A stretch of 64,000 nucleotides of DNA from Hormiphora californensis (lineage: Eukaryota; Animalia; Ctenophora). Shown here in pieces: positions 4,890-49,682 of this stretch; position 1 is the stretch's first letter; the number at the start of each line of letters is the position of its first letter. The notes under the pieces were generated by a model that saw only the letters and a list, made by a program, of their open reading frames with translations, was not told the DNA's origin and did no database searches. The translations under genes and the position numbers were made by a program. Location: NCBI GenBank assembly GCA_020137815.1, contig CM035354.1:124001-188000 (forward strand), written 5' to 3'.

Positions 4890-6755
4890 TTTCAAAATTG
4901 GAAAGCCTTCGACATCATCTCCTGCACAGCACCCACACAACTATGTGGCGGACTACCATCGGGGGTTGAGGCCTCAGTGCATGCTGCCAGGAAAGCTTTT
5001 GAACGTGAAGATGTGGAATGCATCCTGATGGTTGATGCTTCGAATGCATTTAATGCACTGAATAGGAAAGCAGCTTGAGCAACATGGATCACACATGCCC
5101 GGAATTCCACCAATACTTGACCATACCTATGGGCTCCCATCACGTCTTTTTGTCACCGATGGCGAACACCATGAAATCTTGTTATCCCGGGAAGGAACCA
5201 CTCAAGGTGATTCGGCTGCAATGGGGATGTACGCCTGCTCCCTCATGCCATTTGTAAACACACTTCGGGTATGATAAAGTTATCACGATCTTCTACGCAG
5301 ACGATGGTACGGGAGCCGGACGCCTCGATAATGTGCAGAATGGTGGGGAAGAGTCAAAAGTGATGGTCCATCATTTGGGTACTATCCCGATCCTGGAAAA
5401 AGCTGGCTAGTGGTTAAGCCAGGACTAGAACAACAGGCCAAAGATCTTTTCCCTGATGTTAACGTCACCTCCATTGGACATCGCTACCTAGGCTCTTTTA
5501 TTGGCACAGAGGAGGGGACTGCAGATTATCTGAAGGAGATGCACTTAAATGGAAGAGCGACATCGAGACAATCAGCGAGTTTGCTTATACTGACCCACAG
5601 TGCCTACTCTGCCTACACGATGGGCGTCAGTAAGGAGTGGTCATTCGTTCTCAGAACAACAGCCGGAATCAGTAACCTACTGAGAGAGTTGAGGAGACGA
5701 TTACCACTAAACTACTACCAGCCATTACTGGACAGCCTTACATCGACGACATCACCCGTAAAACCATGGCGCTACCACGGTACGGAGGCCTTGGGATAGA
5801 GAACCCGTCAAATGGCTGACCTGGAAAATGCGAACTCAGTAGCTGCTACAGCGGAACTAGTAAAAGCTATTACAGAGAAGAAAACGGAGTTGTTCCGGAC
5901 CAGGAAATGGACAAAGTACGAAAGCTGCGATTCGTAAACTCAAACAGCTTTACAAAAGTTTACACGAGACCATCAGAGGACAACTAAGTGAGAGTGCACG
6001 TAGAACTTTGACTGATAAGTGAGAAAAATCTTCTGCGTACCAACATGTCTACCCACAACAACTAAACTTCAACCTGAATAGACAGGAATTTTAAGATGCA
6101 CTGTCAATCGGTACAATTTACCCATCGTGGGAGAGGCTAGGCCCACGAACTGTGCATGTGATGAACTGAACACCGTTGAACATGCCATTTCATGCAAAAA
6201 GGGTGGATATGTAGCTCTGAGACACAACCGTGTTCGGGACTATATAGCAGCGGAGCTTACCGGGTATGCGACGGTACTGAAATTGAGCCCTCTCTCCTCC
6301 CCACCAACGGAAGAGATCTCCCCGAAGGAACGATCACTGAGGATACGCCAGATTGGATATCTCAGCGAGAGGATTCTGGAATACAATGGACAAGGCAATG
6401 TTCGATGTAAGAGCCTTTAATGCTCAGGCCCCATCAATTGTAACCAGACTATCCCGCTTACATATGCAAAGCATGAGACACAGAAGAAAATAGCCTATCT
6501 TCACCGAGTCCGGGAAATAGAAGGAGGATTCTTCAGTCCACTTGTGATCAGCACAACCGGGGGACTTGCCAAGGAGTTTACCTAAGTGGTCAAACACATT
6601 GCTGAACTAAAGGCAAAAAAATCAGGAAACAGTCATGGTGACTGCATCAGATACATCAGGCTTCGCCTAAGCTTCTCAATGGTCAGAAGCGTCACCCTTT
6701 CGATCCGTGGATTCCGTGGGAAGAAGACCGAAACTACATCTGATGATCTATGGAA
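4890..6755 (+). mobile_element. Degenerate 5'-truncated CRE-like non-LTR retrotransposon (RT + CCHC + restriction-like endonuclease)
   Basis: Frameshifted fragments VDASNAFNALNR, GTTQGD, FYADDG, CKKGGYVALRHNRVRD, LDISARGFW...FDVR, HETQKKIAY...FSPLVISTTGG, RLRLSFSMVRS. Confidence 0.8.
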
Positions 6756-9700
6756 CAAGATTACAAGATTACAAGATTAAAACAGAATTTATAATGTCAA
6801 TAAAATCAACATCCGCTCATACACTATACGAGCCTGGATATGCATAGTACAGTATGACAACACATAACCAGGCCCGGTAATAAATTAATATTACTAGTTA
6901 CCTCAAGCGGATTTCAACATTAAGGTAACGAGAAATATGTAAGCACATTAGGTACTGTCCGAATCATCGAGTCAATCAATAAATTTAAAAGTGTATTTTC
7001 ATAGTCATCTCACACATTGATATGATTGGGTGACACACGAATTTAATAGTAATTATAACACATGTAAAACAAGTCAACATTATATAACGCTGCAGCGATA
7101 TGGATTAAGCAGTACAGTAAAGGGACCCAGAGACCGATGTGATATTAGGTTGAAGTAAAAGGACCAGGAATGATTTTGAGAAGGGGAAAAGGGCTGATGC
7201 CGGAAGTGATGGAATAAGTAATATAGAGTAGAAGGACCCGGAAAACCGATGCGAAATTATGTTGGAGTAAAAGGACCCAGGACTGATATACAAGGCAATT
7301 ACTGTCCGTATGCTTTAGAAAGAGGTGTGTCTTCAATGCTGTTTTGAAAGATGATAGGATTCTGAGTCACGTATCGCTCGTGGTAATTCATTCCACAGTT
7401 TTGGAGCTACAATACTGAACGCTCCCTTGGTGTTGTCGTAGTGAAACTCACTTTCCGTATTTCCTTGAGTGCAGTTTCATCTTTGTCAATTCTGAGTGAC
7501 TGAACTTTCTGGGGTCGCTTCTCCAACATTTCAGCCATATAGGGGGGAGATAGTCCGTTTAGAGTCTTGATACCAGTAAACAAATTTTACTCTCATCGTT
7601 GTCTTACAGGCAAGAAATGTGATTCATTCTCAGTTTTGTCACACCACGTCTGCCCCTCTGCCGTATATAAATCTCGTCGCAGCGTTTTGTATTTTTGGAG
7701 TCTTTTTAGATCACTATCTTTCATAGAAGACACAGGGATTGCAGTAATCTAGCCGGCTAGGATGAGAGTAGTCACCAGCTTCGTTTTCTGCATCTTGTTG
7801 AGTTCTCCCGCAATCCTCCACATTTGCACCAGTTGAAGTTACATGCTCGACAACTTTAGTAACGTGATCAGACATGGATAGGGTACTGTCAAATATTACA
7901 CACACGTTTCTTGCAGATGGAGCGATTGCCGTTTCCTCTCTTCTGGATCAATTTGAATAGTCTCAGTTTCTGCTGCTTTGCTCCATTTACTCTTCAAGAT
8001 GAGACACTTCTGTTTTGTCAGGATTTAGTTTCAACATATTGTGGTGCCATCCACACCCTTATATGTGCCACACATTTCTGTAACCTATCAATGACATCAG
8101 CGATGGAGTCTGGCAGAAAGGAGATGTAAAGCGAGAGTATATCTGCGTACATATGGAGGCTGAGACCATATAGAGCAGCAATCTTTTCCAGATCCTTTGT
8201 GTACAAGATGAACAAAAGAGGTCCCAGAATGGATCCCTGGGGAACGCCAATCTCGATGGGCTTAGAACTAGACTCCATGGATCCAATCCTGACCCTAGCA
8301 GACCGTCCAGACAGATATGACTTTATCCATTTGAGAACTCGACCTCCAATTCGATATTCAGTCTCAAGTCGATTTAAGTTTGGAATGGAAATGGTGTCGA
8401 AAGCGGCAGACAAATCCAACAAACCCAAGATCACCTGGGATTTTTTGTACCTTGCATGAGGATGTCATTTCTATCTTCACTGTAGCAGTTTCGCAGCTAT
8501 GGTTAGTTCTGTAAGCAGATTGGAACTTAGCAAATAGATCATGTTTTTCTATGTTCCTATCAACTGGTCTGACACACACTTCTCTACACTTTCGAGAGGA
8601 AAGATAAGTTTGAGATGGGTCTATAACTCTTGAGCTCATCCGGATCCAGAGATGAATTTTTGTAAGCAGGTCTTATGATAGCTCTCTTCAGACTTTCTGG
8701 AACTTCCCCTTCTGATAAGCTCATGTTGACAATTTTTGACAGGAGGGGAACAAGATGAGGAAGTACTGCAGTTAAATCGAAGTAGGAAGTGGATCGAGAG
8801 CACAATGTTTTTGATTCATACTTCGGATTTGTTTACCAGTTGTTCATCAGACACAGGTTTAAACGATGAAATACAGGAGAGATTGGCGATTCTGGCGTCA
8901 AATCCGGAAGGAAAGGCAGAGTTTCCGAGAATGCTGGGTCGTTGCGAATATCATCGTAAATACTCTGACCTTCGAATGGAAGAAGTCGTTAGCATTCTGG
9001 TGTTTGGCAGGATCAGCAACGGTTGGTAGTTGACGGGGAGTTTTATCTTTACCAAGTAGGAGTTCAGAAGTTGATAAGTTGCAGAAGGATTTCCTTCGAC
9101 AGCTTCAAGACGTCTTCTAAAGTACTCTCTCCTCGCTTTTCGAAACACAGACCGTGCACATCGCACTTCTTTCACAACTCCAACTCAGCTCGATCAAGCT
9201 CTCAAAGGACACCCTGGTGGGCTTCCGCAGCTTTTTTCTGTAAAGCTTTTTGTACTGCGTTCAGCCTTGCGTCGACTCTCAGCACATTGTAGAGGCATTA
9301 TCAAACCATTGAGGTTTTCCTCCAACCGATAGATTTCCTCAAGAGGTGCTAGTTCATCCAATATATCAAGTAAAAGCTCCTGGTACATTTCAACGCAGTC
9401 AGCAAGAGAGCGGCCAGGAAACAGTGGTCCTTTCAGTTCAGATTTCTGGATCAATCTGTTATAGCTTCAGCTGTTATTTTTCTCATAGCTCGGCATGTAA
9501 CTGTCTTTTTCAGAGATGGTCGGTTTGCTGAACCACAGTGAACATTAAATGATACAAGAAAATGATCAGGAACCTCTGGAGTTGGTATAACATCTACATC
9601 ACTCAACAGATATTCATCTCTGCAAACCAGGTCAAGCAACCACCGTTTATATGAGTCGGCGTGTAATCTTCTGGTGCCAGTTATGATCTTCAACTATTTG

Positions 9701-11595
9701 CAATAGTTGTTCGAAAAATAAGCTGGGGGTTTTCAGCATGGATGTTAAAGTCGCCATGATGATTAGCAGGTGTCCATTCAAAGTGGAGAAAGCCGCAAAA
9801 AATTGTCGAACTCGTTAGAAGACAGCCTGTTTTGTTGAATCAGGTGGACGATACACAACAGCTACTCTAGTAAGTTGAACTCCGGGTCCTTCCACTGTAA
9901 CCACTAGGCACTCATATGACGAAAATTGGCGATTCGTCTTCGGTCGCTTCACAGTTAAGCCATTTTTGCATATTACTGCACACCTCCTCCTCTGGAACCT
10001 CTAGATAAACTTATCAACTGATAGTCAAATCAGAGATATGTCTTGAGATCGCAGTTCTTCGACATGAAGCCTGACTCAGTGATGACACATAAAATCAATG
10101 CACGTTCAGAAATAAGCACCATAACTCCTCCAGTTTGTTACGAGAGGGAGAAACAGTTCAAGCTTCAAATCGGAGATGAGGAACCCCTGACATCTCTAGT
10201 TTTTTTGCCATCCTGTTAATGACACTGACCCGAACGGGACACAGACGATAACCACTGTAGTGAGAATGGGAGCTGGATTTATGCTCCGATGAGTTATTGC
10301 AATTAACGCACAGTTTCGTAGATGTAGCATCGCATTGCTTCACATCATGGTCACCGCCACAACGTTTACAGACTGAGACTTCACTAGTACAGTCCTTTCA
10401 CATGGTTGAAACCCTGGCATTTATAGCATTGTTGAATGTGAAAGCGTCCTCAACATTTAGCCGTGATCTCCCGTAGTATAACTTACCATATCCAGTACAC
10501 GCTTTGGATGGCTACTGGAAGTCTAAGAGCCACATTGCACAACTGTTGTTTTTAAAGTGACTCTTTACATCAACCACAGTGGTGTTGCTAGATTTGATCA
10601 GGGTTTTGGATTCAAGGTTGTGCAAACTAATTTATTGATGGCGTCCTTTCCAACACCTTCGGTCTCCAGTGGTACGTTGAGAATAGTCACTTTAGCGGTG
10701 CTGACGACTGGTGAAATAGTGGCATCGGCAGAAATTTTCTTCTCGATAATCTCACTGATTGATGTCATATCAGTTGATTCTGGGAGGCCAATAATGATCT
10801 CATCAGACTTTTTGCAGTCAAGGAAGTTGATAGGGGTCGCACACAGGGCTACATCAAGGTTTTCAGCTATCCTAGCTGAATCATTGTTCGGGCAGCTAAT
10901 CCTCAACTTCATTGATGGAACAGTTTTCCGGATAGGTCGCGTTGTGGTTGGAGGTTGGATTACAGGGGTCTCTGCTGAACTTCCGGCCGCAGTCGCAAAT
11001 GTCGGAGGTGACGTGGAGGTAGTTGGAATCTGGGAAGCAGAGGGTTGGGAAGCAGAGCGTTGAGTTGCAGTTAACTCAGATTCAAGGGTATCCTGTGATG
11101 ACTGGGAAGCATGATTGGGTTGCAGCGGGGGGCCATTCGGGAAAAAGGATTTGAGAGCACTCACAATTTTCGACTCTATGCTAGACTCCATTTCCTCATT
11201 TAGTTTACTAACTCGACTTTCAATGGATTCATTTAGCCGTGTTTCAAGCTGAGGAACCAGTTTTGCAGTCAGAAAGCTGATCAGCTCTTTATTGCGCCAG
11301 ACTCAATGTCCTTAACCAGCACACAATGGTTGCACCACCAACTGGAAACAACAGTCGGAAGTGTGGATCGGTTAATGTTCGCAAAACCAGGATTAGCACA
11401 AGCTGGATGATAGTACCTGGAACATTTCAAACACTTGATCCGCGGGACTCTGTTGGTCGCCTTCTTCCCACACTTGCACATCTCCAGATCGTCCGGAGAG
11501 GTCATATCTTTGGACTGCCCTTCGTGGGCTGTTACATCAGCTTTATCCTAAAACTCAAATTAATTTGTTTAAAGTAGTGTTGAAAAGTTTGAAAC
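6752..11595 (-). mobile_element. Full-length but frameshifted L2/CR1-group LINE ('LINE A'): ORF1 with PHD finger and zinc knuckles (~11505-10158), ORF2 APE-RT (~10150-7310), (TCTTGTAA)n tail, leader-like 5' end
   Basis: CKCGK..CLKCSRYYHPAC..WWCNHC; CYKCQGFNH; YRPISNLSFLSK; QSAYR..HSCETA; LLDLSAAFDT; GVPQGSILGPLLF; HMYAD. Tail repeats (acaagatt) at 6755-6779. Confidence 0.88.
11554..11595 (-). other. Spliced-leader-like sequence copy at 5' terminus of LINE A
   Basis: GTTTCAAACTTTTCAACACTACTTTAAACAAATTAATTTGAG, identical over 41 nt to 37159-37199. Followed by TTTTAG, not a GT donor, so it is not an SL RNA gene. Identity with the ctenophore SL is recalled from memory. Confidence 0.8.
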
Positions 11596-11635
11596 ATGAG
11601 AGTGTGTCAATGAACAATTGTTTTTTTTAATTTAT

Positions 11636-12450
11636 TATTTAAATACAAATACAAATACAATTATAATTTATATCCCGCTTTTGGGCTATGCATTGTTAGT
11701 GCTAGGAGGACGCCGTTTCAATCAGTCGATTGAAGCAACGAAACCACCACTAACAAGCCTTCTAAAGCGGGCTTATAGGATAAGATCCTAAAGGCCTTAA
11801 AAAACCGTCGGCAGTCATTCGATATAATATATATAAATGTAAGTAGAAAATAAGGGTTATAAAATATCTAATTAAGAAATAAGCGTAATTAATTCGTTGA
11901 GTGATGAAGTAGTTAGATAATTGAGAAATTAACTAGTTAGATAATTGATAATTAACTAGTTAGATAATAACTAGTTAGATAATTAACTGTTGATTAATAA
12001 GTACATAGTGTAAATACTAAGTAAGTAGTATAGTTTCATAATTAATTCAAGTAAAAGGCTAGTGATCCAAAAGGAGGCGAATAGCTAAGTAATTAGTTAA
12101 TGGATAAAGTAACTGTAACAGGATAACCGATAAGGTAATACACACTAACCATATTAATTGCTATATAAGGTTATGATCTAATAAATGGCCTATGAAAATT
12201 CTAAAGAAGCTGGTAATAAATTAACGAATAACGAGGTAGAAAAATAAAAGCAAGAGACCAGAGGTCAGTCAGTAGGTTAAATACAAAGCTGTTAATAAAT
12301 TAATTAATTGGAGCGGTAAAAAATAAAAAGGCAGGAGGCCAGTGCAATGGCCAGTCAGAATAAGTTAATTAATGCGGTTGGGTTTAGTCCGTGATAGCGC
12401 AAGAGCGCATGTATTTTGATAACAACTGAGAACTCTCAGCATCAAAGATT
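11636..12450 (-). mobile_element. Probable 3' UTR/tail remnant of another non-LTR element
   Basis: Minus strand ends GCGGGATATAAA...(TTTGTA)n, resembling the 3' ends at 13544 and 31665. Short internal taactagttagataat repeats. Right boundary uncertain. Confidence 0.4.
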
Positions 12451-12479
12451 GCTTACGGGAGTGCTCTTGGCCTATGCTA

Positions 12480-13585
12480 GAAGCCGTGGAAAACGCGCGC
12501 ACTTGGGGTCTGCAGCGCATGCCAAGGAGTGCTCTCCCCCCAAAAAAAAAAATTGGAAAGCCTTTGAAAAGTTTTAAATTTTAAATTTACAATTGCTTGA
12601 ATTCATGTCTTAGCGCTGCAATATTTGTGAAAGCAACGTAACGCGCTAATTTTGTAGTACTCTGCTGCAGAAATTAATCGGCGCGCGCGATTCAGGCGTT
12701 TTTATGCTTATTTGTTGGACCTTGGAAACGCGAATGAAATTATTGAGGCTACTTCGCGTGTTGGGGTTAGTGAATTTTGAAAACAACAATGAACAATTTT
12801 GAAAATGTTATCAGCGCAGAAAAACTCGAGAAGCAACTACGTGAATGCAAAGAAGAACTTGATCGCCACCGTCTTAGCGTGATTGAGCTTCAGCAAACGG
12901 TTATTGAAGCCCAAAAGCAACAACTAAGTGCAGTGTCAACTTCGGTGCAGAAGGTGAAAGCCTACTCTTCTGTGCTTGCACAGAATTGTGTGCTGCAAAC
13001 TCCCTAAATGGTAAAACCACTAACGTCGCACCACCCTACTCCCGTCCAACAGCCCGGAAGAGAGAAGAACCTGATTGTGTTTGGTCTCCAAGAAACAACC
13101 GATAGAGTAGCTAAAACTACTTTAGACGAACTTTTTGAGGAGCTGCAAGAGAAACCGAAAGTGACAACGATAAAACGCATCGGGGAAAGAAATGAGAAAC
13201 GTCCTAGACCGCTCTTAGTATCCCTGGAGAGGAGAGCGACTCTCCTGGCGCTTCTCAAAAAAGCACGAAACCTCAAAGACTCCAAACAGTTTTCGGCTGT
13301 TTATCTATCTCCGGATCTAACGCCCTCTGAACTGAAGGAGCAAAAAGCTCTCAGGTCCACTTTGAAACGGATACGACTAGAAGATCCAGACGGCTGCTAT
13401 TTTATCCGTAACAATGTTATCCAAGTGGGATAGTTCCCGACTAATTCACCGTTATCAGAGAACCGTGCTAGGAGCAGGCAGTCTGCTGCAGTCCCTTTCA
13501 AATGAAGGAAAACGAGTTGTCTGTAATTAAAACTGTGTCAGTGCGGGATATAAACTGTCATTTTTATTATTATTATTATTATTTT
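12480..13585 (+). mobile_element. ORF1-only non-autonomous LINE derivative (coiled coil + RRM-type ORF1, one frameshift near 13005) with (TTA)n tail
   Basis: NLIVFGLQE...RIGERNEKRPRPLLVSL...VYLSPDLTPSELKEQKALR. No ORF2 follows. GCGGGATATAAA then (tta)n at 13544-13585. Confidence 0.6.
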
Positions 13586-13874
13586 AAATTTTAATAAACA
13601 CGGGCAGTTTTGCTTGATAGTTGATGTTTTAATTGTTACGGAACCCGGGATAGGCATCTGCTGTCCGCTATATCAAGATTTAAATAGCTGGATTATTCTC
13701 TGTTCTCAAGAAACAAGTTACACAGTTATTGAACGTCGCCTTATTAAACGGCAAGAGACCTCATATTTTGAAATATAATTCTACGGACTTTTGTAAAACT
13801 TTAAACACATTTGTTGACTTATTACCTGTCAGCTGTACTAACTAATATCTTTTGAATCAGTCGGTGTAGTAGCC

Positions 13875-15679
13875 ATGGCTATGCGACGAGAGTACAAATT
13901 GGTGATTCTGGGTGCCGGTGGTGTTGGAAAATCCGCATTGACCATGCGACTCGTACAGGGTGTCTTCGTGGAAAAATATGATCCCACAATTGAGGATTTC
14001 TACCGACACCAGATGGAGGTAATTAGCTTTACGAGTTTCACAGGGCATCATTCATTTAGCAAAGAAAGGCCCCAACAACTGCTATATATTTTCTATCGGA
14101 AAAATTAATGGAGGATATTTGGTTTCCCATCTATTTAGGAGTTAGGACAAGGGTTTACACTTTTGATGTCTGCACACTGTTGTCTACATAGATGAGTCTC
14201 ATTTACCCTCTCCCCAGGTTGACAGTGTGGCTTGTACCCTCGAGATTCTGGATACCGCAGGAACGGAGCAATTTGCTGCAATGCGCCAACTTTACATTTC
14301 TAATGGACATGCCTTTGCACTTGTGTACTCCATTGACAGTCAGGCATCGTTCCTTGAACTCCAGGTAATGGGGAGACTTTTCTGTGGGCTATATTGTAAT
14401 AGGCATTGTGGCCAGAAAATTAATTGGCATTAGATCGAGATTCTGATTGAAAATATAGTTCTAAGGAACTAAGAAGGGGTACCTACTAATGAAAGATAAG
14501 AGATGGAAAGTAAGAGTAAGATTGACGTCAGAGAGATATTAATTAGAATTCTGCATGCTTCAGACGATACATCAACAAATAGTTGATGTGAAGACGTCAA
14601 GTCAGGTGGCGATGGTACTCGTGGGCAACAAATGTGACATGGAAATGGATCGGGAGGTCAGCAAGGAGCAGGTAATTAATTATTGTGTAATTAATTAATC
14701 GTAGAGTTAATTACTTTTACACCCACATTCATTGTGCCATAGATTTGGTGTACATTAACCGACATATCACTCGTCTATTCTTTTTCTTGTCACTTATAAT
14801 ACTAGTTCGCCATAACTTTCATTTGAGTAACATAGCAACATGCACAATGCACAATGCACCTGTCATCTATGTATTATACCATCTACCTGAAAAATATCAC
14901 TGCGAAACTCTCATCATATGAAGCGCAATATGGAATTCATCCACTGCTGCTGGTACATTTAAGTAGAAAGAGCTCGACCGGGAGCAATACTAATCAAATT
15001 AAAACACGAGTTTATTACAAGGCAGTAGCAGATGTCTGATAAAAAGAAGCTATGAGATTCATATCTTCTTTTTATATGACAGCTGTTACCGTCTGACATC
15101 GACCCTTATATAATCTGATTTTGATCGCTTAGTCAGACATCTTTCACTCGCTCTCTAGCTCGACTGAGTACTATAAAAAGAAATTGGGGTTTTTTTCTGC
15201 ATCTTCTCTTTCTCTATCTTTCTTTCTCTATCTCTCTACCCTTCTCCCTCTTTAACTACTTCCCCTGAAACCGATAGACAGCTGCAGTGTGACATGATAT
15301 GCACCTCTTTCTCTCTCCCCTTCACTGCTGGGTGCACTTCTAAACTTTTAAAAATAGGCTAGATTCATTCATTTTCCAATAAATCTGCACATTAGTTCAA
15401 TTTCCGCGCCCTATTATATAACTCCATATCTAATTTTCTCTCCCCCTCTCGCCCCTCAATATCGCTTACTCTCTCCCCCATGCCTCATTCTCTCTTTCCC
15501 TCCAGGCGGATCAGCTAGCCACACGATCCTGGAACTGTGGATTCATTGAAACGAGTGCCAAGTCGGATACCAACGTCCGAGAGTTGTTCGTTGAGCTGGT
15601 CAGGAAAACAAACCAGTACATGGGAATGGGCGCCAAACCGGACAAGGTCAAGAGAAAATTCAAATGTGCTCTTCTATGA
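13875..15679 (+). CDS. Rap-family small GTPase; exons 13875-14018, 14218-14364, 14564-14671, 15506-15679
   Basis: [29 protein letters not shown] (Rap-type Thr61), NKCD, ETSAK, C-terminal CALL CAAX box. Phase-0 GT-AG introns. Confidence 0.92.
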
Positions 15680-22143: not shown

Positions 22144-24268
22144 AACTATGAACGTTTGTAGACTGGCGCGTTATGAAGTTGGCTTTTCCCAGCGCGAGCT
22201 GGGAACAGCCAACTGGAGTTTAATCGCCCGGCAGGGCGATTAAACTGGTTTAAATCCCGACGCCGATCCCGAGGCGCTAGCCGAGGGTGAGTGGGAGGTG
22301 ATTTAAACCTATAACGCGATAGGCTAACAAACGTTCATAGTTTATGAAACCCGATAGTAATTACACGCAAATAAGAGACACAACACAAGGTGAAACACAC
22401 AAGGACTGCTGTAGTCAACAGACGTCCCCAAACTGTGTGTAGACTAACTGGCACCTAGTTGCAACTGTTCCTTACATATTTGAGTAAGAGAGAGCAAGCA
22501 CGGTGCCCCTGAAGGAAGTTCCACCTCGACCGAGTCCCCCAGCAAAACGAACGGTTGTGTGACCTAAAGGGGACCTCTGGGAACTACGGAGGACCGTGGG
22601 GGAAAAGATTTAAAAGTAGCCTAAAAAATTAAAACGATAGAAAGATAGCTATCGTTTTTTCACTTTGAAAATACGACATTTCTTTAACAAAATCCTTGAT
22701 CAGGAAGATGCAATTAGTGTCTCCCACCTATTTTTTGACGTAGAATCGAATGCCGTTGAAGTCAAATCTCTAAAATGTTAGAAAAATGGTGAAAATCGCG
22801 TTTTTAGGTGTTTTTTGGTGAAAAAATCGTTCAAACTGGTACTAGATGATGAGATAGAGTCCCAAAAGTATGACAAATCGCTTTTTTGGGACCTTTTCGC
22901 CCTAGAAACAGATTTTTATGAAAATCTAGTTCAGCGCCTATTCTCTGTATACTTTCAAAGAAGGTGAATATTGCTCTAATTTAGCCAATTTTGAAGAAAA
23001 GTCATCCAAAACAGTACTAGATGATGAGATAGTGGCCCAAAAATATAACTAATCGATTTTTTGGGTCTTTTCCGTCCTAGAAACAAATTTGCATGGCGGT
23101 CGGATGATAAGTTTCCTCTCGGTAGGCCTCTGAAGTAGGTGGAAATAGCCAAAATATAGCGATTGCGGCAAATGAATGTGAATAAACGTTTACCAAACCC
23201 ACTTCATCATCATGTATGGCTCTTGCATAGTCCAGTAGCCCAGAGATAGGTCAAACATGATGCTAAAGTGGGTTTGGTCAACGTTTATTCACATTCATTT
23301 GCCGCAATCGCTATATTTTGGCTATTTCCACCTAGTGCAAATTTGTTTCTAGGACGGAAAAGACCCAAAAAATCGATTAGTTATATTTTTGGGCCACTAT
23401 CTCATCATCTAGTACTGTTTTGGATGACTTTTCTTCAAAATTGGCTAAATTAGAGCAATATTCACCTTCTTTGAAAGTATACAGAGAATAGGCGCTGAAC
23501 TAGATTTTCATAAAAATCTGTTTCTAGGGCGAAGAGGTCCCAAAAAAGCGATTTGTCATACTTTTGGGACTCTATCTCATCATCTAGTACCAGTTTGAAC
23601 GCTTTTTTCACCAAAAAACACCTAAAAACGCGATTTTCACCATTTTTCTAACATTTTAGAGATTTGACTTCAACGGCATTCGATTCTACGTCAAAAAATA
23701 GGTGGGAGACACTTGCATCTTCCTGATCAAGGATTTTGTTAAAGAAATGTCGTATTTTCAAAGTGAAAAAAACGATAGCTATCTTTCTATCGTTTTAATT
23801 TTTTAGGCTACTTTTAAATCTTTTCCCCCACGGTCCTCCGTAGTTCCCAGAGGTCCCCTTTAGGTCACACAACCGTTCGTTTTGCTGGGGGACTCGGTCG
23901 AGGTGGAACTTCCTTCAGGGGCACCGTGCAAGATTGGGGCCAATACACACATTGAGAGATATTGAACAGTAAAAGAGAGAATGAGAGAGAGAAACGAATG
24001 GAATGCGATTATTTTGTCTCTTGATGAGAGAGATAACATTGAAAAGTGTTGCAGATGTGTTCCCCTCTCTGTTATTGACAGAACTGTGTGTTTACACACA
24101 TTTTCATTACTTGGAAATTTACACGCATGTTATGAAAATGAAGAGAAACGCGTGAAAAAGGGCACTGGTCTGATAAATAGCGAGCAGGGTGTTAAATCCC
24201 CCAGCTCGCAGTTATCGAGTGCGCGTAAAATGTTCAAAAGACTGATAAATCAGCTATCGGGTTTCATA
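22144..24268. mobile_element. Multi-hairpin element (copy 2, diverged), interrupted by the 22499-23928 insertion
   Basis: Same stem architecture as 17684-18344. tatgaaacccgatag / ctatcgggtttcata inverted pair. Internal similarity (aagtgttgca...gttccc...agaactg...tttacacaca). Confidence 0.55.
22499..23928. mobile_element. Non-autonomous foldback element, Chapaev/Transib-like (CAC...GTG ends, 4-bp TSD, ~600-bp TIRs)
   Basis: caag|CACGGTGCCCCTGAAGG ... CCTTCAGGGGCACCGTG|caag. Arms near-identical, with an internal second inverted pair. Confidence 0.8.
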
Positions 24269-24425: not shown

Positions 24426-27400
24426 TCAAAACAGCAGCTCCTTCAGTGCAAAGAGCCAGCTCATGTAGGCATCATCGTTTGCAAAACCTAGCACCATCTT
24501 ACCGCACTTTCCTGATTTCCCCTTATCCGCCTGGTCTAGTTTAAACAGGGTGACTTCAAGTCTAGTTTTATCTCCTGTGGCAACTGAGAAGTTGCAGAGT
24601 GATGTTGTATTGCAACAACTCGGTGTCTTGATTGTGCTAAGGTGAAGGCTCTCCCTGAACAGATATGCCCTGGTGGGCTGATCACACCACGTGACTTCAC
24701 CATACAAAACGAGAGAAGTGGGGTTACCACTGGGGGGTTGATCTTCCTCCGCTAAATGGAGCAATCCGTTAATCCTGAGGAGGGTGTTTCGGCTGTGCAG
24801 GACCGCTTGGCTGACTACGGGCACCTCAAACACCCGCCATGTCCCCTCCAGCATGTCCTCAAAGAACAGCTTGTATTGGCAAAGTCGCTGCATAGGCTTA
24901 TTCCGGTAGGAGACGGCCGGCAGACGATCCCCGAGATCTTCCTGAATCTTTTTGAAATAGTCTTCTGATAATATTGATTCCAATCGGGATTGCATTAGAA
25001 TGAAGTCACCATACACTTTCAACCGTGGGCTAAACTCTGAGAATAGTTGGGCCAGTTTAAGAACCGATGAGTGGTCTTCCATAAGTTTGGCGCTGATTTC
25101 TAAAATCCCCTCCAGAGCCTCGAATGCGAAAATGAGACACGATCTCAAAGATCCATCGTGAGGTGTGTAATCTTGATCTTTTAGGGCAGCCCCAATCAGC
25201 CTATCTTTTAGGTGGTGAAGGGATGAGACGTATCCAGCTTCTGTCTCTTTAAACTCGCTCAGCACGTGAGTGAGCCGGGATGAAGCCTTGTCTCGATTGT
25301 GGTGCCTACAAATCGCAGCCTCAACCAAAAGAACCTGAGAACGTTTTTCCTCCGCCTGCGAAACCATGTCTTCAACATTTCTCAGATAGTCCGTAATGGT
25401 CGGGGTGAGCGGGCGAAATGATGGCCTTCGCTGGTCACTTCCCCTTCGTAATCCAATGTTGCTATTTATCCTGGTCCGTGAATCCACATTACTACGAGTC
25501 AGCGCTGCAAAGCTCTTCAACAGTTCCTCCAAGATTCGCTCAGATCCATCACCGGCTTGAGACTTGTAAAGTTGTAACGCGGACACATCACAGATCTCTT
25601 GTACCTCAAACGGTTCTGGGCTAAGTGATAAGCAGAGAATGGTGATCTTTTCCAGGGATGCAAGAGTTTCAACTGAACCCTCTGCTTCCTTAAATCGAGC
25701 CATGCTGTTGTCTAGGGACCGCCGGAATATCTCCACTTCATGGTTAATGAGAGAGGATAACTGCTGAGTAGCTGACACCAGGTCAGTCACGAGGCGAGTT
25801 ATGCACGTTTCCACACCCTGGACAGACCCAAGTAGTGATTCTGTGCCCATGGACTCACAAGTGCTCAAGTAGTGTTGGATGACCTGGCACGGGGCGAATG
25901 TTAGCCTCCTCCTGATCTTACTGTCCTTCCTGACTAGGTCCACTAGCCGGGAGGTCCGGGATATGTCATCGAGTGACAAGAGCGACTGAAACTCACGAAC
26001 CCATGACAGAATGTCATACTGGGTGTTCAAAACAAACTCCAGCCCCACTACTTTTTCATTGCTCTTCACCAATTCAGAAAAGTCCTTGGCTATGCGTGTT
26101 TCTAGAGCTGAAACCGCAACCTCGGCAGGACCTCTCCGCTCAATCGGTAGGGCGTCTCTCCGTTTTTCGATTTCCTGGAAGGAAATTTTAATAGCCTGGA
26201 GCATTTGGTAGGCCTCTTTTCTTCGTTCATCAGCTTCAGAGCTATCGGGTGTAAGCTCTGTCATCTTGGTCTCCAACTCAACCAGTCGATCTTCCAAAGA
26301 TTTGCAATCTCGATTAAGTTCGTTCCAGTTCCATTGAAGCTCTAGAGACCGTTCCATGACCAATTCGAGTTCCGAATAGTTCAGATCCAATTCTGCGATT
26401 GCCCTCATAAGACTCTTAGTGGCCATAACGAGGACTCTATCACAGAGTAAATCACTCGACAGGAGTTTCATTAGCTCTTCCCCTTTCATAACCAGCGATG
26501 TGTTAATAGGACGAATTGAGCCGGCCTGATCCAAGTATCGCTGTCGGGCAGTCTCCAGTGAGGGATGACAGTTCTCTTCGTCCACACGTGCTGCCTGAAA
26601 TTAACGAGTATCTTTCATTTCTGCACGGGTGAGTTATACAACTCTCATCACATTAATATTTATTTTACGATTAATGCTTCTTACCTCTTTTACAAAGCCT
26701 TTCAGCATTATTGGCTGAGCCTGAAGATGTCTATAAAAATGCCGACACTCGTTCCAGAATCCCTCAAACTTTAGTCTTCTCTCGTACCATCTGTCCATGC
26801 TGTTTGATGGGATATCCCCGCCCATCTGAGAGGGAACACACCGGGGCCCTCCCAAAACCTCCGCTAAGTTCTCGCTCGTGCAGTGGTCAACTTCGGAGAA
26901 TACCTGCTCGTCTGAGAATGGGGGGGGGGTTCTGATAAAGTTAGTGCCAATGGAGGCCGCGGTATAGGGGGTGACAAAGCAGGTAACAAACGACTTCAGA
27001 AGATCTCTGGTATGATATACATAAATTGTAAACCTTGATTACTATACGGTCTTGCCTCTCCTCTGTTTTCAAAAAAATCCCCAAGCCAAACTTCTTACCG
27101 ATTGATAGCATTGAAAGGATGTCAGATGATTTTTTCACAGTAGTCGGAACCTCCTTTTCCCACACGACTAAGAGTTTCAGATTGTAGTGTCTGTAGGCTC
27201 GGAATAGTTCAACAAGCTGTGCATGTATTCCACCACACCAGCTGGAATCCACCATCTCACATAAAACAACCCTTGAGTGGGAAATCATCAATTTTATTTG
27301 TTTTTTTACACATGACAGACGCCTATAATACATGAGCATAATTAACTTATAGGGATTATCAGGGGAGAAAATGCAAATTGTTTGTCATTAAGGGTAAACA

Positions 27401-29132: not shown

Positions 29133-31123
29133 TCACGGAGCAGAAGTAGGAGAAGAACTGAGACTGATTTCGGCAGCGGCTTTAGCTTCGCTGTAATTGT
29201 GAATGATCGTTGAGGCCCCAATTATCGAGCAGCCAATGGCAAGGAACAATACCTGAAAGAATTGGGAAGCCAATTACCCACTTGTTTGATTTGTTTCAAA
29301 TGAAAGGCATTGGAAATACCTATGTACTCATGACTCGATCTACCGAACCCTCAGTCCTCACAGAGCGTGGTGTAAACCACACAACTTATGTCTCATTATA
29401 CCTTAAGAACTAGGTCTTTGTTATTCCTCATTTCGTCGAATATCATTTCAGCAAAGGTAATGTAAAGGAAGAAACCGGTGCTTAGCCCTTGAATTATTCC
29501 TGAAATGATAACACTTCATGAATTCTCGTCTTTGAATAGTTTAGCCAAATTTGCTACCATTGTAGTTGACAATATATGTGCAACCATGCAACTGAACTGT
29601 CAGAGCATTGGCCTGACCCTATTCTGACTTGTTGAGTCAACAAATTCTGACCCTATTCTGACCCTATTCTCATTTCGCGGAGCGCACGAGAACTGTCATG
29701 GTCAGAGCATGATTGGCTTGGCAACAACTGGATAGGAATTGTACCTGAAACGAGGGCAACAGTAACAGCATCCAGAGATGCCATTCCTTCCAGAATCCCA
29801 ATAGCTACGGCGATTCCTATCGGTGTACCGATACAAAACACACTCATGTGAATAACTATGCCTCTACGGGAAAACGGGGGGGGGGGGGGGGGGGTTAACA
29901 AGAATTCCCTGTCTGAAGGTGTTTGTATGTCTAAATCATTAAAGCATGCTAGGGACCAAGTAGGGACCGTGTGGGATGAATCCTGTTATATTAAGGGGTT
30001 TGGTTAATGCGGAGAAGACACGAAGAAAAAAAAAGAAGAAAAAAAAGGGGTTTGGACACTTAACATACTTGATTTGCTGTTCGGCTTCAATTAATCGAGC
30101 TCCTACAGCAAATGCGACCACACATTTGTGTATAAGAATGGCTCCTGCTAGCTGCATAAAAACACTCGACCTTGCTTCCACACCTATGGCAAGGCCTTCA
30201 AAGATGGAGTGGATGAGGAGTGCGAATATTAGTACTCCAACTCCTTTCCTTATCTGCGTGGAAAGTTAAGTTAACCAGCCAATTTTATCAAAAGTCAATG
30301 AATCAAAGATAGCAATACGCTGTGATTTGTGAAGTTACCCCCACACTGACAGTAAACTAACCTGTTCTGAATCGGTTGGGCTTTTCGGTGATTTAACTAC
30401 ATTACCATTAGTTTTAATACCGTCATCTTCATCATCATCTGTAGGACACGCCTGAACACATCCCTTTTCAGAATTAGCTTGATGATGCATTTTCATGTTT
30501 TTTGTCAGACACGGCTCGTGGTTCGAGCATTAGTTTGGATTCCATGATATAAAAAGAATTGAAAAGCTGTTTGTCTTTTTAGTTGCTATAATACCTCGTG
30601 ATGATGAGAATGCCCATGACCGTGTGTGACTGCTTCAACCAACAGAATTAGTATAAAACCAACACACTCCAAAATCTCAGCCAGTGGCAAGGCCTTTAAG
30701 AATTCATTTTCTGTACTTCTTTTCCATATATTAAGCTCCATCGCCACCTAAAAGTATGATCAGTATAATTTAATTATTGACTGTTCATACTCTGTCGCGC
30801 ATAAACATGATAAAAGTTAAAACTCTGTCTGGTGGTGCGAACCCAATCTGAGCGCACTGCCATCAAAATGGCAGACAGTTTTAAATACCCACCTCGGGTA
30901 CTAGGTGCATGAAGCACGTCCCAAAGAATACACCCCCTCCAAAACAGCTGGCTATGCTGGTGAACCGAGCCGTGTTCTTCATCTTTTTGAACCGAATTGG
31001 CAGGAGTCCAAACAGGAAGGGCACCACAAACATGATCGCCATTCCACCACATTTCACCCAGATTGAATGTTTGCTAGTCTCCGAGAGATTGTCCTCATCA
31101 TGTTTAGTGTTGTTGAATATCAT
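29133..31123 (-). CDS. ZIP (SLC39A1/2/3-like) zinc transporter, ~7 exons
   Basis: SCFGGGVFFGTCFMHLVPE; His-rich loop HGHGHSHH; ALLIHSIFEGLAIG; AILIHKCVVAF; GTPIGIAV; QGLSTGFFLYITFAEMI. Confidence 0.9.
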
Positions 31124-34100
31124 ACTAGACAAGAATGAAATATAATCAAGGTTAGATCTACTCTAACTAAGGTTATCTACACTGTATTTTAAATAATCTG
31201 TTGGAGATCAACTAGAACTGATCATATTGTACGATGGTAAACGTCAATATACGTCAATAAACGAAAAGATTTTAAGACGGAGTGAAAGATAGAGAACCTA
31301 AGATTAATTAAAAATTCTTTAACAATGTATCACGTACAAAAGAGTAGTTATTATACACAGCCATGCATCTATTGCACTCATGTACGTGGTGTGTGTTAGT
31401 AAAACAAGCAAGAACGTTGCACTGTACAACGTCAACAAATTACAAAGAAGGAGCAGATATACACACACTCGCTAACCATGACCAAAAATCCGTGGCCCAC
31501 TCTGTACAAGTGCAAGTGGTTGTTTACTGTACCATGAGAAGGAACAGCTATACATAAAAGTGTGTGTGTGTATGATTTTGTAATGTATTCTAACACCTAG
31601 TACCATGAGCCATGTGGTGGCCACACGAGGTTAAACAATAATAATAATAATAATAATAATAATATTCCGCGCTTATATACCGCCCATACCCGACGGAAAC
31701 ATGTCAAAATATTGGCGATGTTCCGACGAGTCATCAGAGCGGTATATCCTAGAGTAAAAATATCGCACACGAACAATTCTGGTTGAAAAAGACAATATAT
31801 GGAAAACCAAATTAACTGGACTTATCAAACTGAGGGAATAACTGGTCCCATAAACCTGTAGATATAATTTTAAACACGCTATACTCACACCTGCTCAAAA
31901 AAGGATACCAGATAGTGATTTAATAACATGACTAGAGAGAGGATGAGACTGATTGCCCGCAGACCCCACAACTACAACAAACATTACAACTCAGCCATGG
32001 GTTCCCCATCACCCACTCCAAATGCACCAACGAAGAGATGTGTTTTCAGGCGAGCTTTAAAGGTATCAACGTTGGGGATCGACCTTAACTCGAGGGGTAG
32101 CTCATTCCAAATAGCAGGCAGAAATACTGATAGTCTCCTACGTCTCAATTTAGAATTGGCTTTGATACTGGTCATCTTGGGGTGTTTTAATCTGTAAGGA
32201 TCAATAACACTAGTCATCCTTGTTGTCCTGGAGACTCCCCAGCTTTTATCAAGAGGAACCATTTCCTGGAGGTAACCTGGTGCCGTTCCATAGACTATCT
32301 TATAAGCGATTAGACAGGCTTTGAAGTCCAGTCTGTAGGAGATGGGTAAAATATGACACTGCCTGAAGTATTCCGAGTAATCCTCTTGATGCCCATGGAT
32401 GTTGAATATAAAGCGTACACAGGAGTTTAGTGTTTTCTGGAGCCCACCAAGAACTCGGGCCGGAAGTCCACAGTACAGAATATTACTGTAATCAATCCTC
32501 GATATAATCAATTGTTTCACCAACATTATCTTCGTTTGAATATCAAAACATCTGTGTAACTGCCAAAGATTCCGTAGTATCAGCCCACACTGTTTCCTCA
32601 CATTGTTAACCTGTCGTTCAAGATTTAGGTTGTGGTCCAAGAGTATTCCCAAGGTTTTCCCATCTGCTCCACTACATTCACTGGGGAAGATTTCCGTTCC
32701 TCCAAAGTTGATAACTGGATCGAAAGAGATTTTACTCAAAGAACTGCGCTTTCCAAGCAGGATGAATTCCGTTTTGGCCTCATTACACTTCAACCACTGC
32801 CCCACCATCCACCGCTTCACCTTCGCCAGACACTCCTCAATATCCACCTTCGTCCTAGACCAGCCAGTAGAATCCGTAGGAACCAGACTCACATAGAGCT
32901 GGGAGTCGTCTGCATATAACTTTATCCGGAGTCCATATGGTTCCACAATATCTTGCACAGCTTCAATGTAAAGTAGAAACAAAATAGGACCAAGAAGAGA
33001 CCCCTGGGGCACTCCACAGAGTAAGGCCAGGGTATCCGAGAGACAATCACCAACCGAGACTCTAAAAGATCTGGAACTCAGGTAGCTCTTAAACCATTGA
33101 AGAGGATCACCATCCACTCCAAACCGTTTCTGCAACACCTCCAACAACTTTTCATGATCCACCGTATCAAATGCGGCACTCATGTCCAAACAGATCAGAG
33201 CAACAACATTTCCTTTATCCATCTCACCTAATACATCATCAAACATGCTGGCTAACAGAGTTTCGCAACTGTGACCAGCACGATAACCGGATTGATGCTT
33301 GCCCAGAAGTGAATTGCTTTCAAGGTACTCATTCAGCTGCGTGAGCACCACCTTTTCTAGGAGCTTAGAAAGGAATGGGATATTTGAGACAGGACGATAG
33401 TTACTGAGAGCTTCCCTATCTCCGTACAGATTCTTGATGGTAGGAAACACGATAGCTTTCTGGAGAGATTCCGCAACTGTAGACTGATGTAGAGATTGGT
33501 TTACCATCGATGTTAATACCGGAGCAAGATCCCTAATGCACTCCTTTACTACCCAAGTGGGCAACGGATCAAGGTCACAATGTTTGCTTGACATAGACTT
33601 CACCACCTTAACAAGTTCCTCCTCCGACATCTCTTTGAATTCCTTCCATGTTGAATGACAGGCTTTTCCGGGTTCCTCAAAGTCGCCAGCTTGCTTCTGC
33701 TCCTCATTGACTTGGGTTCGAATTTTTTCCACTTTGGAACTAAAGAACTGGGAGAAATCATCTGCCAAGTTCTTGGTGTTTGTTGTTTCAGGAAGAATTG
33801 TTTCAGCTTTTCCAAGGAGTTTCTGGAGCTTACTTTGCAATTTCTTTGGGTCACCTTTGGCAGCAACCAAGTCCTCTTTAATGAAAAGTGACCTCTTTTC
33901 CCTATCCATCTTTCCATACAGTTTCTTCAGGTCATTAAATCTCCGTTTCGCATCCACAGTTCCAAGTTTCCGCCAACACCGTTCTGCATTCCTCCTCTCT
34001 CGAAGTAATCCTCTAAGTTCCTCATCCCTCCATGGCTTAAACTTTTTACCAGTCCTCACCCGTTTCCTCGGTACTCGCTTCTCCACTATACCTTCCAGCC

Positions 34101-34844
34101 AACGATAGAAATTCACCACGCCCTCCTCTGGATCCCTACCTCCTTCAAAATCTGCCTTCCGCAAGTCCTCTTTAAATCCTTCCAAATCCACTGACTTGTA
34201 ATCCATGTATTCTCGATGCACTGATTTCTTCAGACAGGAGTTCGACAGGTCAGGTCTCACTTGAATCCCAAACTGTACTAGGAAGTGATCTGATGTAGTA
34301 CCATTAGGAAATATGGAATATGTCACCTAGAGAAGTTTCTCTTGTAGTTATCACCAAGTCCAAGGTTCCTCCCAGCTGGTGAGTAGGCAACATTGGTACT
34401 CTTTGTTGAAGATCAAATGAATCCAGCAGCTCCAAAAGTTTCCTTGCATAGAAGTTATTATCATCTTGCACCTGGAAGTTTAGGTCACCAGCGATGATCG
34501 GAGTACCTTGCTTCATAACAAGCTCGGAAAGGTAGTCACCAAACTCCGACAGGAAAGTTGCTTCTGTAAGTCTCGACCTCGGTGTGTACGGAGGACGATA
34601 GACATTACAGATTCTCTTCGGTTGATCTCTGTCACTGATCAGAACCTCTTGTACTTGAAAAGACTTATACTTGGTCTTCACTGGACACTGCCGAAGAACT
34701 ATGCCATCTCGAAAAAGTATTCCGATTCCTCCACCTCCTCTGTCTCCTCTGGGGCATGAGAAAATGTCCCATCCATTATCTCTGATTTCTTGAAGTTTTC
34801 CAGTGTCCGTTGATTTCAAAAATGTCTCCTGTATAAGACAAATA

Positions 34845-35709
34845 CAGTCGGACCCCGATTTAGTGGCATCCTCGGGGGAAAGAAATCCTGCCACTAAATC
34901 GGGGTGCCACTAAATCGAGGTGAGCCATATTTGGCCCATAAAAACCTATTTTATGCCCAAAATGCTATACTAAGACTAAAGACACCTCTAACTGTTATAT
35001 ATGCAATATTCATGTATTGATGACATGATCATTTCTGATTAGAAATAGAAAACTATCAAATAACTTTTTCAAAAAAATTATGAAAAATTTTCTAAGTTAT
35101 ACCAGCCCGTCTGATTTGTGTTTCGAATCGGTGCAGCTTCCTGGATGTCCTGTCTAATTAGCGGGTTCGAAACGAACCGATACGTGATACCATGCCGAAT
35201 CGGGGCACCCTAAGCGGGTGAGGAAGTACATATCAAAATTTCAAAATAACTTTTTTTCTCAAAATTTATGGGGAGCACCGATCAAAGTGCATTGACAATC
35301 GTACTGTAAAATTTTGCAAAAAAAAGTTTTAAATTTTTTTTAAAGGTATACCAGCCACGTCCGAATCGTGTTTCGAATCGGTACATCTTATCGCATGTCC
35401 TGCTGCTAATTAAACGGTTCGGAACGAATCGAAACGTGATCCCCATCGAATCGAAATTTTGACGCTTGATGAACTTATGATTTAATGACCCCATGGGGAT
35501 CACGTATCGGTTCCGAACCGTCTAATTAGCAGCAGGACATGCGATAAGATTCACTGATTCGAAACACGATTCGGACGTGGCTGGTATTCCTTTGAAAATT
35601 TCAAAAAAATTTCACAAAAAAAAATTCAAAAAAATTTTTGGGGGAAAAATATCTTGCCACTAAATCGGGGTGCCACTAAATCGGGGGCCACTAAATCGGG
35701 GTCCGACTG
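34845..35709. mobile_element. pogo/Tc1-type MITE inserted in LINE B ORF2 (related remnant at ~48510-48595)
   Basis: ta|CAGTCGGACCCCGATTTAGTGGC ... GCCACTAAATCGGGGTCCGACTG|ta. Excision restores the APE reading frame. Confidence 0.9.
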
Positions 35710-37158
35710 TATCACAATCCTCCTCTTCCAGATGCGAAATAACACCTCCAGTTTTGTTAATAAGAGAGCGGACATTTAGTGTCCCAATCTTCCAAGTCTT
35801 TTCCTGTGTAGTTCCTCCTTGGTCCTCGTCCAGTACAGGTTTTTTTCCTCTTTGCTTACACCTGCAGTCCTCTCCATAAGCCGTGCTCGTTCATTGATGT
35901 AGGAAGGGCACCACATACTTGAAGCCGTATGGGTCTTCGAATACTTCTTGTCCTCTCTTGATCCTCCAACTTCACAGTTCACACATTTCATCCTACCAGT
36001 CTCGTTGTTCTTCTTTGCTCTACAGTCTTTCGTCTGATGCGATCCAGCACAGAAGCAGCATATTGGAGTATCCTTTTGGGGGCAGTAAATCGATCCTGCT
36101 ATATGCCCAAATCCTTGACAGTGAAAACACTGTATCACATGATACCTGTTCTTGACAAAGTGTTGCCGAAGACCCAAGTTGATCTTATCCCCGTTAGTAG
36201 ACAAAAGCCTCCGGATCTCTGGAGCCATCTGGATCACTGCATACCTGTCTCTTTCGCTCACAAACACCACCTTCAACTTCTTGTCCTCATGATAAAGTTT
36301 TCTGATATCCACATTCTTGTCCAAAATCGCTGCCAGGATAGTCTCCTTTTTCAGTAGGTCTGGGTCCAAATCATTTATAGTTACCTTTGGTTCAAGCTTC
36401 TTGGCCTCCTCTGAGAAAAATGACATGGAACAGTCCTGTGCAAGTGGAGTCAAAACTTTCTCTGCTTCCTTCATCTGGTCTTCATCAGGGAAATACAGCC
36501 GGGTATGGTCACTGTTCACTCTGGATCTCACCACCGGTATCGTCTTCAACGCAGTTTCCACTTTGGGTTTGACCTCATCAGTCCACTTCTTCGCACAGAA
36601 TCCTGGCCCTCCTTCCTCATTGATGCCAGTTTTAATATTCACATAGTGTTTCATCGTAGGTGTAACCGGTTCCTCTGGATCACCACCACCAATATCACTT
36701 CTACTATTCTCCATAGGTTTGACCAAAGCAGAGATAGTGGAAACCAGATCCTTGTGCAGCTTTGCAAACGACTCTTTCAGATCAGTCTGGTCTCCAGGAA
36801 CAGAAAACGGTGCCGACGCCGGAAGCATGTTGTAACAGGCTTTGAGAAGATGCCACAACTGAGGTTTATGGACAGACGACGGACAAACAGTGTCACCCCT
36901 CCCAAGGCACACTAACAAATCACTACCCTTATAATCATTACTAAATACTTCTCCTGCTAACAGGTCTTCAAAATCACTCTTAGTGATACATATGTCATAA
37001 TTACTCGTAACGGTCATCCTAAAACACCCGTTGCACGCCGGCCAACAACAAACTCTTCACTGATATCACTCGTAAGTTAAGTTAAAGTAGGCCTAACAGA
37101 GATCTAAAAGATTAGAGAATAGATGCTAACACAGTTATCAGGAACGATTGACGGCAAA

Positions 37159-37199
37159 CTCAAATTAATTTGTTTAAAGTAGTGTTGAAAAGTTTGAAA
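37159..37199 (-). other. Spliced-leader-like sequence copy at 5' terminus of LINE B
   Basis: TTTCAAACTTTTCAACACTACTTTAAACAAATTAATTTGAG followed by TTTGCC (no GT donor); 141 nt upstream of the ORF1 ATG. Confidence 0.8.
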
Positions 37200-49091: not shown

Positions 49092-49682
49092 TTAACCCGA
49101 AGCACCCTCTTCTCTCTTCTTATCTGCCAGCCCTGTGACACACTCAAACAATCTCTTGTCAGTTATGTCATTCTCATCTATCAAATATGATTCACCGTTC
49201 GCTTCAAATGACTCAAATACACCAACATTAACCGGAACACGAATATCTTTCGGATCAATTGTCCTCTCGTAAGATCTACAAAATAGGCTCAGTTTTGTTG
49301 CCACTATCTTATCATCTCCCTCCATTCTCATTTCAGTAACATAATTGCGTGTTGTGTAGTAAATTACCCCTGTGTATAGGTAGGTAAGGGAGATAGGGGC
49401 TCCTGTTGCTAGTGCCATCCATACAGATGAGAGGTGGAACTTTTTAGCAGCTATCATTGGGGCGAATATGGTGGTAAATCCAGAGGATGCGAGGGTGATG
49501 TAACGAGATCGCTTCACTCGAGGGGAGAGTTTTCCCTTGTAAGAATCACCAGAAAGACAGCGTGGAGAAATTACTTTAGCTGGGTTTATCAGTCGAGAGA
49601 TACAACAACGGATATTCATGGCCATGCCTGGAAAGTACATGTTGTTAGTTTCGTTAAAATCAAGATCAATTTGAGCAGCCAT
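49092..49682 (-). CDS. TMEM70: TMEM70-like mitochondrial ATP synthase assembly factor, intronless
   Basis: YKGKLSPRVK..SS, two TM segments, TRNYVTEM, DIRVP...VFESFEANGESYLID pattern. Confidence 0.8.
   Translation of the reverse strand: MAAQIDLDFNETNNMYFPGMAMNIRCCISRLINPAKVISPRCLSGDSYKGKLSPRVKRSRYITLASSGFTTIFAPMIAAKKFHLSSVWMALATGAPISLTYLYTGVIYYTTRNYVTEMRMEGDDKIVATKLSLFCRSYERTIDPKDIRVPVNVGVFESFEANGESYLIDENDITDKRLFECVTGLADKKREEGASG

Follow-up and report, generated by a model that had tools for sequence, protein, structure and literature searches.

How does a retrotransposon come to begin with the spliced leader (SL) of its host? The question is raised by a window of DNA, 64,000 nucleotides of a Hormiphora californensis contig, in which two LINEs, referred to here as A and B, start with the same 41-mer. 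The initial annotation proposed that the RNAs of these elements are capped by SL trans-splicing and then reverse-transcribed as far as the leader. The existence of leader-headed LINE families is now well supported, and, judging by the arrangement of their sequences, these families are likely to have been copied from leader-capped RNA.

Two LINEs with a leader at their head

The 41-mer is found on the minus strand at 11554-11594 and 37159-37199. These are its only two matches in the whole window, both without mismatch, as against none in 100 shuffles of the window, and outside these two places identity to the leader nowhere exceeds 26/41. The head of LINE A has one leader base more than the 41-mer (a G at 11595), giving a leader copy at 11554..11595 (-) with 42 of the 43 leader bases, the first three of them inside a target duplication; the copy heading LINE B (37159..37199, -) has 41 of the 43. 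Read against the published consensus (PMC8527503), 42 of 44 letters are present in LINE A and 41 in LINE B, with no mismatch. Both copies end in AG and are followed by TTTT (LINE A) or TTTG (LINE B) instead of GT, so that the junction is of the mRNA type, as had been claimed. The exact matches, together with a PHD finger found by Pfam, also bear out the assertion that the leader forms the 5' end of a PHD-ORF1 LINE, 48 nt ahead of the ORF1 ATG, and that an identical copy caps LINE B.

LINE A lies entirely on the minus strand. Its 48-nt 5' UTR (11506..11553) has an acceptor-like TTTTAG at +1 to +6, an ATG-TAA start-stop at +16, ahead of the ORF1 ATG, and a GCCC-GGGC hairpin. ORF1 (10200..11505, lower end approximate) is spread over several frames; it opens with the PHD finger (PF00628, E 1.5e-5), and cysteine/histidine knuckles can be read from the translation near its end. 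Remnants of an ORF2 with an APE endonuclease and a reverse transcriptase (RT), frameshifted in the window, occupy 7300..10240 (ends approximate), the RT being identified by RVT_1 (E 2.7e-14 at 8021-8464) and the endonuclease by tblastn with a LINE B relative, L007 (E 0.001). The 3' tail (6758..6781) consists of 8-nt TAATCTTG repeats, which come after a ATTTTATT/poly-signal-like stretch. Contig pieces from two public sequencing runs, X1 and X5, differ from LINE A by 20 substitutions and 108 gaps over about 5.2 kb (12 of the 14 pieces listed; two, on an internal repeat, were left out). Since gaps far outnumber substitutions, the frameshifts of LINE A are likely to be assembly errors and the family is likely to be young. 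A third run, X8, carries the family at about 94-95%.

LINE B, also on the minus strand, has a U-rich 5' UTR of 141 nt (37018..37158), with GGTGTTTTAG-G directly ahead of the ATG, an intact ORF1 of 413 aa with cysteine/histidine knuckles (35776..37017), an ORF2 encoding an APE endonuclease and RT (31987..35890) and an (ATT)n tail (31638..31665, approximate). ORF2 is split in the endonuclease region by an insert at about 34845-35710, which has short inverted and repeated ends and is missing in L007.

The claim that A and B have no extended similarity in their UTRs or ORF1s stands as far as blastn is concerned, which finds only the 44-nt head and a weak 39-nt stretch of the RT region in common, but it has to be qualified: TTTTAGGAT is common to the start of A's UTR and the end of B's, and a weak match between zinc knuckles connects the two ORF1s (E 0.006, 18 aa). 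The RTs are 40% identical in amino acid sequence over 147 aa. A and B are the window LINEs that retain an ORF1 start, and both are leader-headed. A third, LINE C (50.5-52.0 kb), is without its own start, as is an ORF1-like piece at 12.8-13.4 kb, and these two therefore provide no test of the model.

The host genes recognised in the window are myosin I (1246-2837, -), a Ras-family GTPase (13842-15676, +), a RhoGEF in a single ORF (24426-26489, -), a ZIP transporter (29942-31162, -), a second RhoGEF (43727-44257, -), a TMEM70-like gene (49092-49682, -) and a MutL/PMS2-like gene (52623-55106, +). The window also contains a palindromic (inverted) repeat of about 1.4 kb (22498-23929) with arms that are 91% identical; no Rfam family was matched in it.

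The insertion boundary

Contigs of four public runs (X1, X5, X8 and X14) were compared with the window over 5800-12800. In X5, position 6753 is joined to 11593, and 4 letters at the joint are compatible with either side; in X8, a run labelled as another organism, 6757 is joined to 11606 by way of target-like letters. Contigs of X1 and X14 have no empty-site joint over the same interval. The empty sites, which are probably paralogous and not allelic, have no leader in either of the two runs. The X5 joint defines a 4-bp target duplication with copies at 6754..6757 (AACA on the plus strand) and 11593..11596, the latter overlapping the first three leader bases (microhomology). Taken strictly, the ends of LINE A are thus 6758 and 11592, between the duplication copies; of the original assignment of 6752..11595, the leader-headed element stands and the exact limits do not. 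The target is the last codons of a multicopy, 5'-short RT element on the plus strand (4900..6753, start approximate), which resumes at 11597, as translation, joints and depth indicate; we take it, from its motifs, to be CRE-like.

Because the leader is missing from the empty-site contigs, it belongs to the insertion. The suspicion that the 41-mer might be flanking target DNA is laid to rest by the same contigs and by the duplication, which overlaps only three leader bases. For LINE B and for two other leader-headed elements (L008 and L015), target-site duplications are not resolvable against their ATT tails. One contig of run X1 joins 11595 to 6758, so that a LINE A-type tail is followed by 8 letters and then by a leader start, possibly a head-to-tail tandem of leader-headed elements. 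At this locus, the run guessed to be RNA covers the leader bin only (1/30 bins), which speaks neither for nor against expression of the LINE.

The leader of the host

The leader consensus of H. californensis has been published, and the accessible part of that report puts the leader on at least 56% of long reads and counts 718 genomic leader copies in Hormiphora and 491 motif copies in Mnemiopsis, giving no origin for them there (PMC8527503). Scanning metagenome contigs for 29 leader bases, with a perfect match required, gave 34 loci: 23 mRNA-like, one SL-gene/5S array and 10 heads of LINE-type elements. (By this criterion leaderless or diverged heads are invisible and the share of relatives without a leader is not derivable.) In the 23 mRNA-like loci the leader stands no more than 7 nt from the contig start and is followed by a host-type ORF; all six of those put through Pfam are host genes (G-alpha, chaperonin, RuvB-like, innexin, ubiquitin-S27a and Na/K-ATPase beta). 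The putative SL gene (L022) is a 778-bp tandem in which the leader is followed by GTAAG and the other half of each repeat carries 5S rRNA; the position of the GTAAG sets the length of the leader at about 43 nt. A canonical Sm site was not matched in it by the pattern used. There is a TCACC at -61, which we take to be comparable to a PSE. The leader core has no match in viral contigs or in prokaryote genomes. With the published consensus, the mRNA-like starts and the GTAAG donor in agreement, the original identification of the 41-mer as a ctenophore leader is supported. Two of the LINE-type loci, L021 and L003, deviate in their first leader bases (both start with GTA), through truncation or as leader variants.

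Leader-headed elements at other loci

In the 10 LINE-type loci the leader is joined to a LINE-type ORF1, and seven have evidence of an endonuclease or RT, six by Pfam (L003, below cut-off, L007, L008, L015, L020 and L034) and one, L021, by translated similarity; LINE B, L007, L008, L015 and L034 have both APE endonuclease and RT by Pfam. Eight of the 34 loci have at least 10 nt of non-leader flank: seven are LINE-type, one is the SL gene and none is a host retrogene. Other full-length elements with the same junction, which the model required, do occur: L007, intact and inserted at another site, is related to LINE B (ORF1 84% and RT 88% identical) and has an identical junction, and L016 has LINE A's junction and the first 39 nt of its UTR in front of a different ORF1. 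L016 is probably similar to L032, a complete, leader-headed, ORF1-only element (471-1600) with an (AAT)n tail. Such ORF1-only elements resemble HAL1. The ORF1-like piece in the window (12790-13580, +) is a 5'-short relative of L032 with an (ATT)n tail. The assignment of L031 to the LINE type is uncertain, the ESM Atlas yielding leads only (PHD-type clusters, 0.87-0.90).

The leader is the constant part of these elements. Together with A and B they make 12 leader-headed copies, drawn, without being independent, from several samples and perhaps several species. Ten of the 12 keep 40-43 of the 43 leader bases without internal mismatch, and all departures are at the 5' end; the full 43 are present in one copy, and the other 11 lack at least the first base. 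Leader bases 3-14, on which the search did not select, are perfect in seven of the 10 loci. Among seven B-type elements the UTRs are 40-92% identical and the ORF1s 31-84%, with the leader unchanged. Beyond the junction, 10/12 LINE copies have a T-rich start, compared with 1/23 mRNAs (Fisher p 4e-6, for copies that are not independent). TTTYAG stands at +1 to +6 in 4/5 A-type heads and the GCCC-GGGC hairpin is likewise in four of the five; GGTGTTTTAG lies ahead of the ATG in 5/7 B-type elements.

A few features of single elements should be recorded. L020 is a leader-headed LINE with a 351-nt flank starting with GTAAG. The four further loci of its contig set are mRNA-like, and L020 is possibly an unspliced read-through RNA. 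In L015 and L021 a GT follows the leader and a YAG occurs shortly before ORF1, so that the UTR is formally removable as a cis-intron. ORF2 of L008 (1395-4730) has an in-frame tandem repeat, with units of about 12 aa, between the endonuclease and the RT.

How the leader is maintained

The junction falls exactly at the leader end, the donor position, in all 12 copies, which points to the spliceosome, and 5' ends that lie 0-3 nt from the leader start suggest that reverse transcription ran as far as the cap. The leader of LINEs A and B is thus likely to stem from SL trans-spliced RNA that was reverse-transcribed; whether it is, moreover, renewed in every cycle is a question on which we are evenly divided. 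In such a cycle a genomic copy would be transcribed from upstream, by host read-through or from a weak, imprecise start. The spliceosome would take the last AG of the DNA-encoded leader as acceptor and swap in a fresh leader, so that the same RNA would be regained without loss, and the ORF2 protein would then prime at the target through short homology and copy the RNA to within 0-3 bases of the cap. LINE B lies within a run of minus-strand genes; LINE A faces the plus-strand Ras-family gene, and the myosin-I exons, which extend to 2837, lie downstream of it. A host gene spanning either LINE was not identified in the window (exons shorter than 62 aa fall outside the scan).

Since flank or an additional leader, tandem relic or otherwise, is contained in none of the copies (0/12), persistence by trans-splicing needs the leader's own last AG, a requirement that the initial annotation does not mention; other acceptors would not fit, an upstream one leaving flank and old leader inside, a downstream one deleting the UTR. 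With the first base or bases missing from 11 of 12 copies, erosion would be expected of a leader passed on purely as DNA, and that it has not occurred counts for renewal. So does the constancy of the leader over distances at which UTR and ORF1 have diverged, the RTs of A and B are down to 40% identity and the endonuclease of L020 barely aligns with that of other elements. Counted on the other side are an acceptor that reads GAG, when the myosin introns of the window end in YAG in 4/4 (read by eye), stronger acceptor-like sites that are kept downstream and apparently unused (splicing at one of them is apparent in L031 only), and a conserved UTR module (the 39 nt common to A and L016, with the hairpin) that could be a promoter. 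The failure to identify a host gene around either LINE weighs on this side too, as do the search's demand for a perfect 29-mer and the non-independence of the 12 copies. To speculate, the T-rich starts may help to define a weak upstream acceptor.

Renewal has a bolder extension, which we put forward tentatively and with more doubt than confidence: LINEs of at least two ctenophore lineages, with their ORF1-only satellites, might be promoterless SL trans-splicing parasites, the leader AG serving as a self-renewing acceptor through which each full-length copy, in whatever transcript it lay, would regenerate capped element RNA. If so, most dispersed genomic leader copies in ctenophores should be LINE heads.

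The alternative that fares best, unlikely as we judge it, is that trans-splicing supplied the leader on one occasion or a few and that it is now plain LINE DNA. A promoter within the leader or the UTR would then direct transcription from the first leader base, and the downstream acceptors might yield a separate trans-spliced mRNA. The poor GAG acceptor, the neglect of strong ones and the portability of the 39-nt module between unrelated ORF1s all suit it. There is precedent as well, as far as the accessible parts of the sources go: the genomic RNA of C. elegans Cer1 skips its SL1 acceptor (PMC3315495), a promoter role has been proposed for the dinoflagellate leader (PMC12014239) and internal promoters are common in LINEs (PMC2861651). 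It demands, however, that both the 41 nt and the start position stay unchanged where UTRs are 40-60% alike, and it has to contend with the missing first bases. The likely promoter of the SL gene, moreover, is upstream of the leader and missing from the LINE flanks, which share no word longer than 7 nt with the upstream 100 nt of that gene.

Rather unlikely, in our estimate, is a scheme in which rare master elements with a longer promoter and an outron, and with a normal acceptor at the junction, have most of their RNA trans-spliced, so that most full-length copies are leader-headed but never transpose again. This removes the GAG problem and accounts for junctions that are fixed within families (B with L007, A with L016), and leaderless masters would escape a search for a perfect 29-mer. 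Against it, both window LINEs with an ORF1 start are leader-headed, the T-rich starts are unlike ordinary acceptor use, and many lineages would have to persist although most of their transcripts lose the promoter, given the leader's presence on at least 56% of Hormiphora long reads in the accessible part of PMC8527503.

It is very improbable that the RT switched template from LINE RNA to either SL RNA or a capped mRNA, or that the two were ligated. Chimeras of U6 and L1 establish template switching as a route to 5' chimeras, but such events would not be expected to produce a junction exactly at the donor position in 12/12 copies, with related copies joined at an identical LINE base, and neither SL intron nor mRNA sequence lies between leader and LINE. 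Insertion into SL genes can hardly be credited and is rejected: the duplication does overlap three leader bases and GT follows the leader in 2/10 loci, but the empty-site joints have no leader, the four two-ORF elements in which both ends are present (A, B, L008 and L015) have no SL intron after the tail, the flanks are unlike the SL gene and the endonuclease is of the APE type.

Comparison with known systems

LINEs must rebuild their 5' end in each round, and the known solutions are internal promoters and ribozymes. Host trans-splicing, if the renewal of the leader is real, would be a third route, and one that ties transposon activity to SL RNA supply and host transcription. Among the closest known systems are R2, L1Tc and RTE, in which an element-coded HDV-like ribozyme sets the 5' end of the element RNA on a longer transcript. 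Processing of a longer transcript is common to these elements and to the proposal made here; in the ctenophore LINEs it is the host spliceosome, in place of the element's own ribozyme, that would act and also supply the cap. CRE, SLACS, CZAR and NeSL share with LINEs A and B a leader sequence adjoining a non-LTR element. They encode a restriction-like endonuclease and target SL genes, so that their leader is target DNA, whereas the leader of A and B lies within the element, which has an endonuclease of the APE type. Some SINEs are reportedly headed by snRNA genes; the head of a retroelement is taken from a small spliceosomal RNA in both cases, those SINEs being non-coding with a snRNA gene at the head, and the elements described here being coding LINEs with the leader exon only.

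In the openly accessible literature that was searched, no report of LINE families starting with a host leader was found. Leader-headed LINEs may explain the 718 genomic leader copies of Hormiphora and the 491 of Mnemiopsis, which can be tested even without the promoterless step. In ctenophore annotation they give rise to first exons that are falsely shared, and the leader provides a simple tag for full-length elements.

The remaining comparisons are with systems of which we have seen the accessible parts of the published accounts. By architecture, LINE A resembles the L2/CR1-lineage LINEs with a type IC ORF1 (PHD, RRM and three CCHC knuckles; PMC4120745) in its PHD and knuckle ORF1, APE-RT ORF2 and microsatellite tail, and differs from them in having the host leader as head. 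The use of host trans-splicing by transposon RNA is seen in Hydra, where a leader is present on about 30% of TE long reads (PMC12220107), and in C. elegans Cer1, whose sub-genomic RNA is trans-spliced while its genomic RNA is not (PMC3315495); these are phenomena of RNA, genomic elements starting with the leader not being described in the accessible parts of either report, whereas here the leader heads genomic copies. A further parallel is provided by dinoflagellate retrogenes, which carry relic leaders from reverse-transcribed trans-spliced RNA (PMC12014239, PMC3942190). There, as here, reverse transcription of trans-spliced RNA is betrayed by a leader copy in the DNA, and an AG in the old leader serves, or in the LINEs would serve, as acceptor for the new one. 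The passengers in dinoflagellates are host genes, behind whose newest leader the relics stack up; in the ctenophore they are LINEs, each with a single whole leader.
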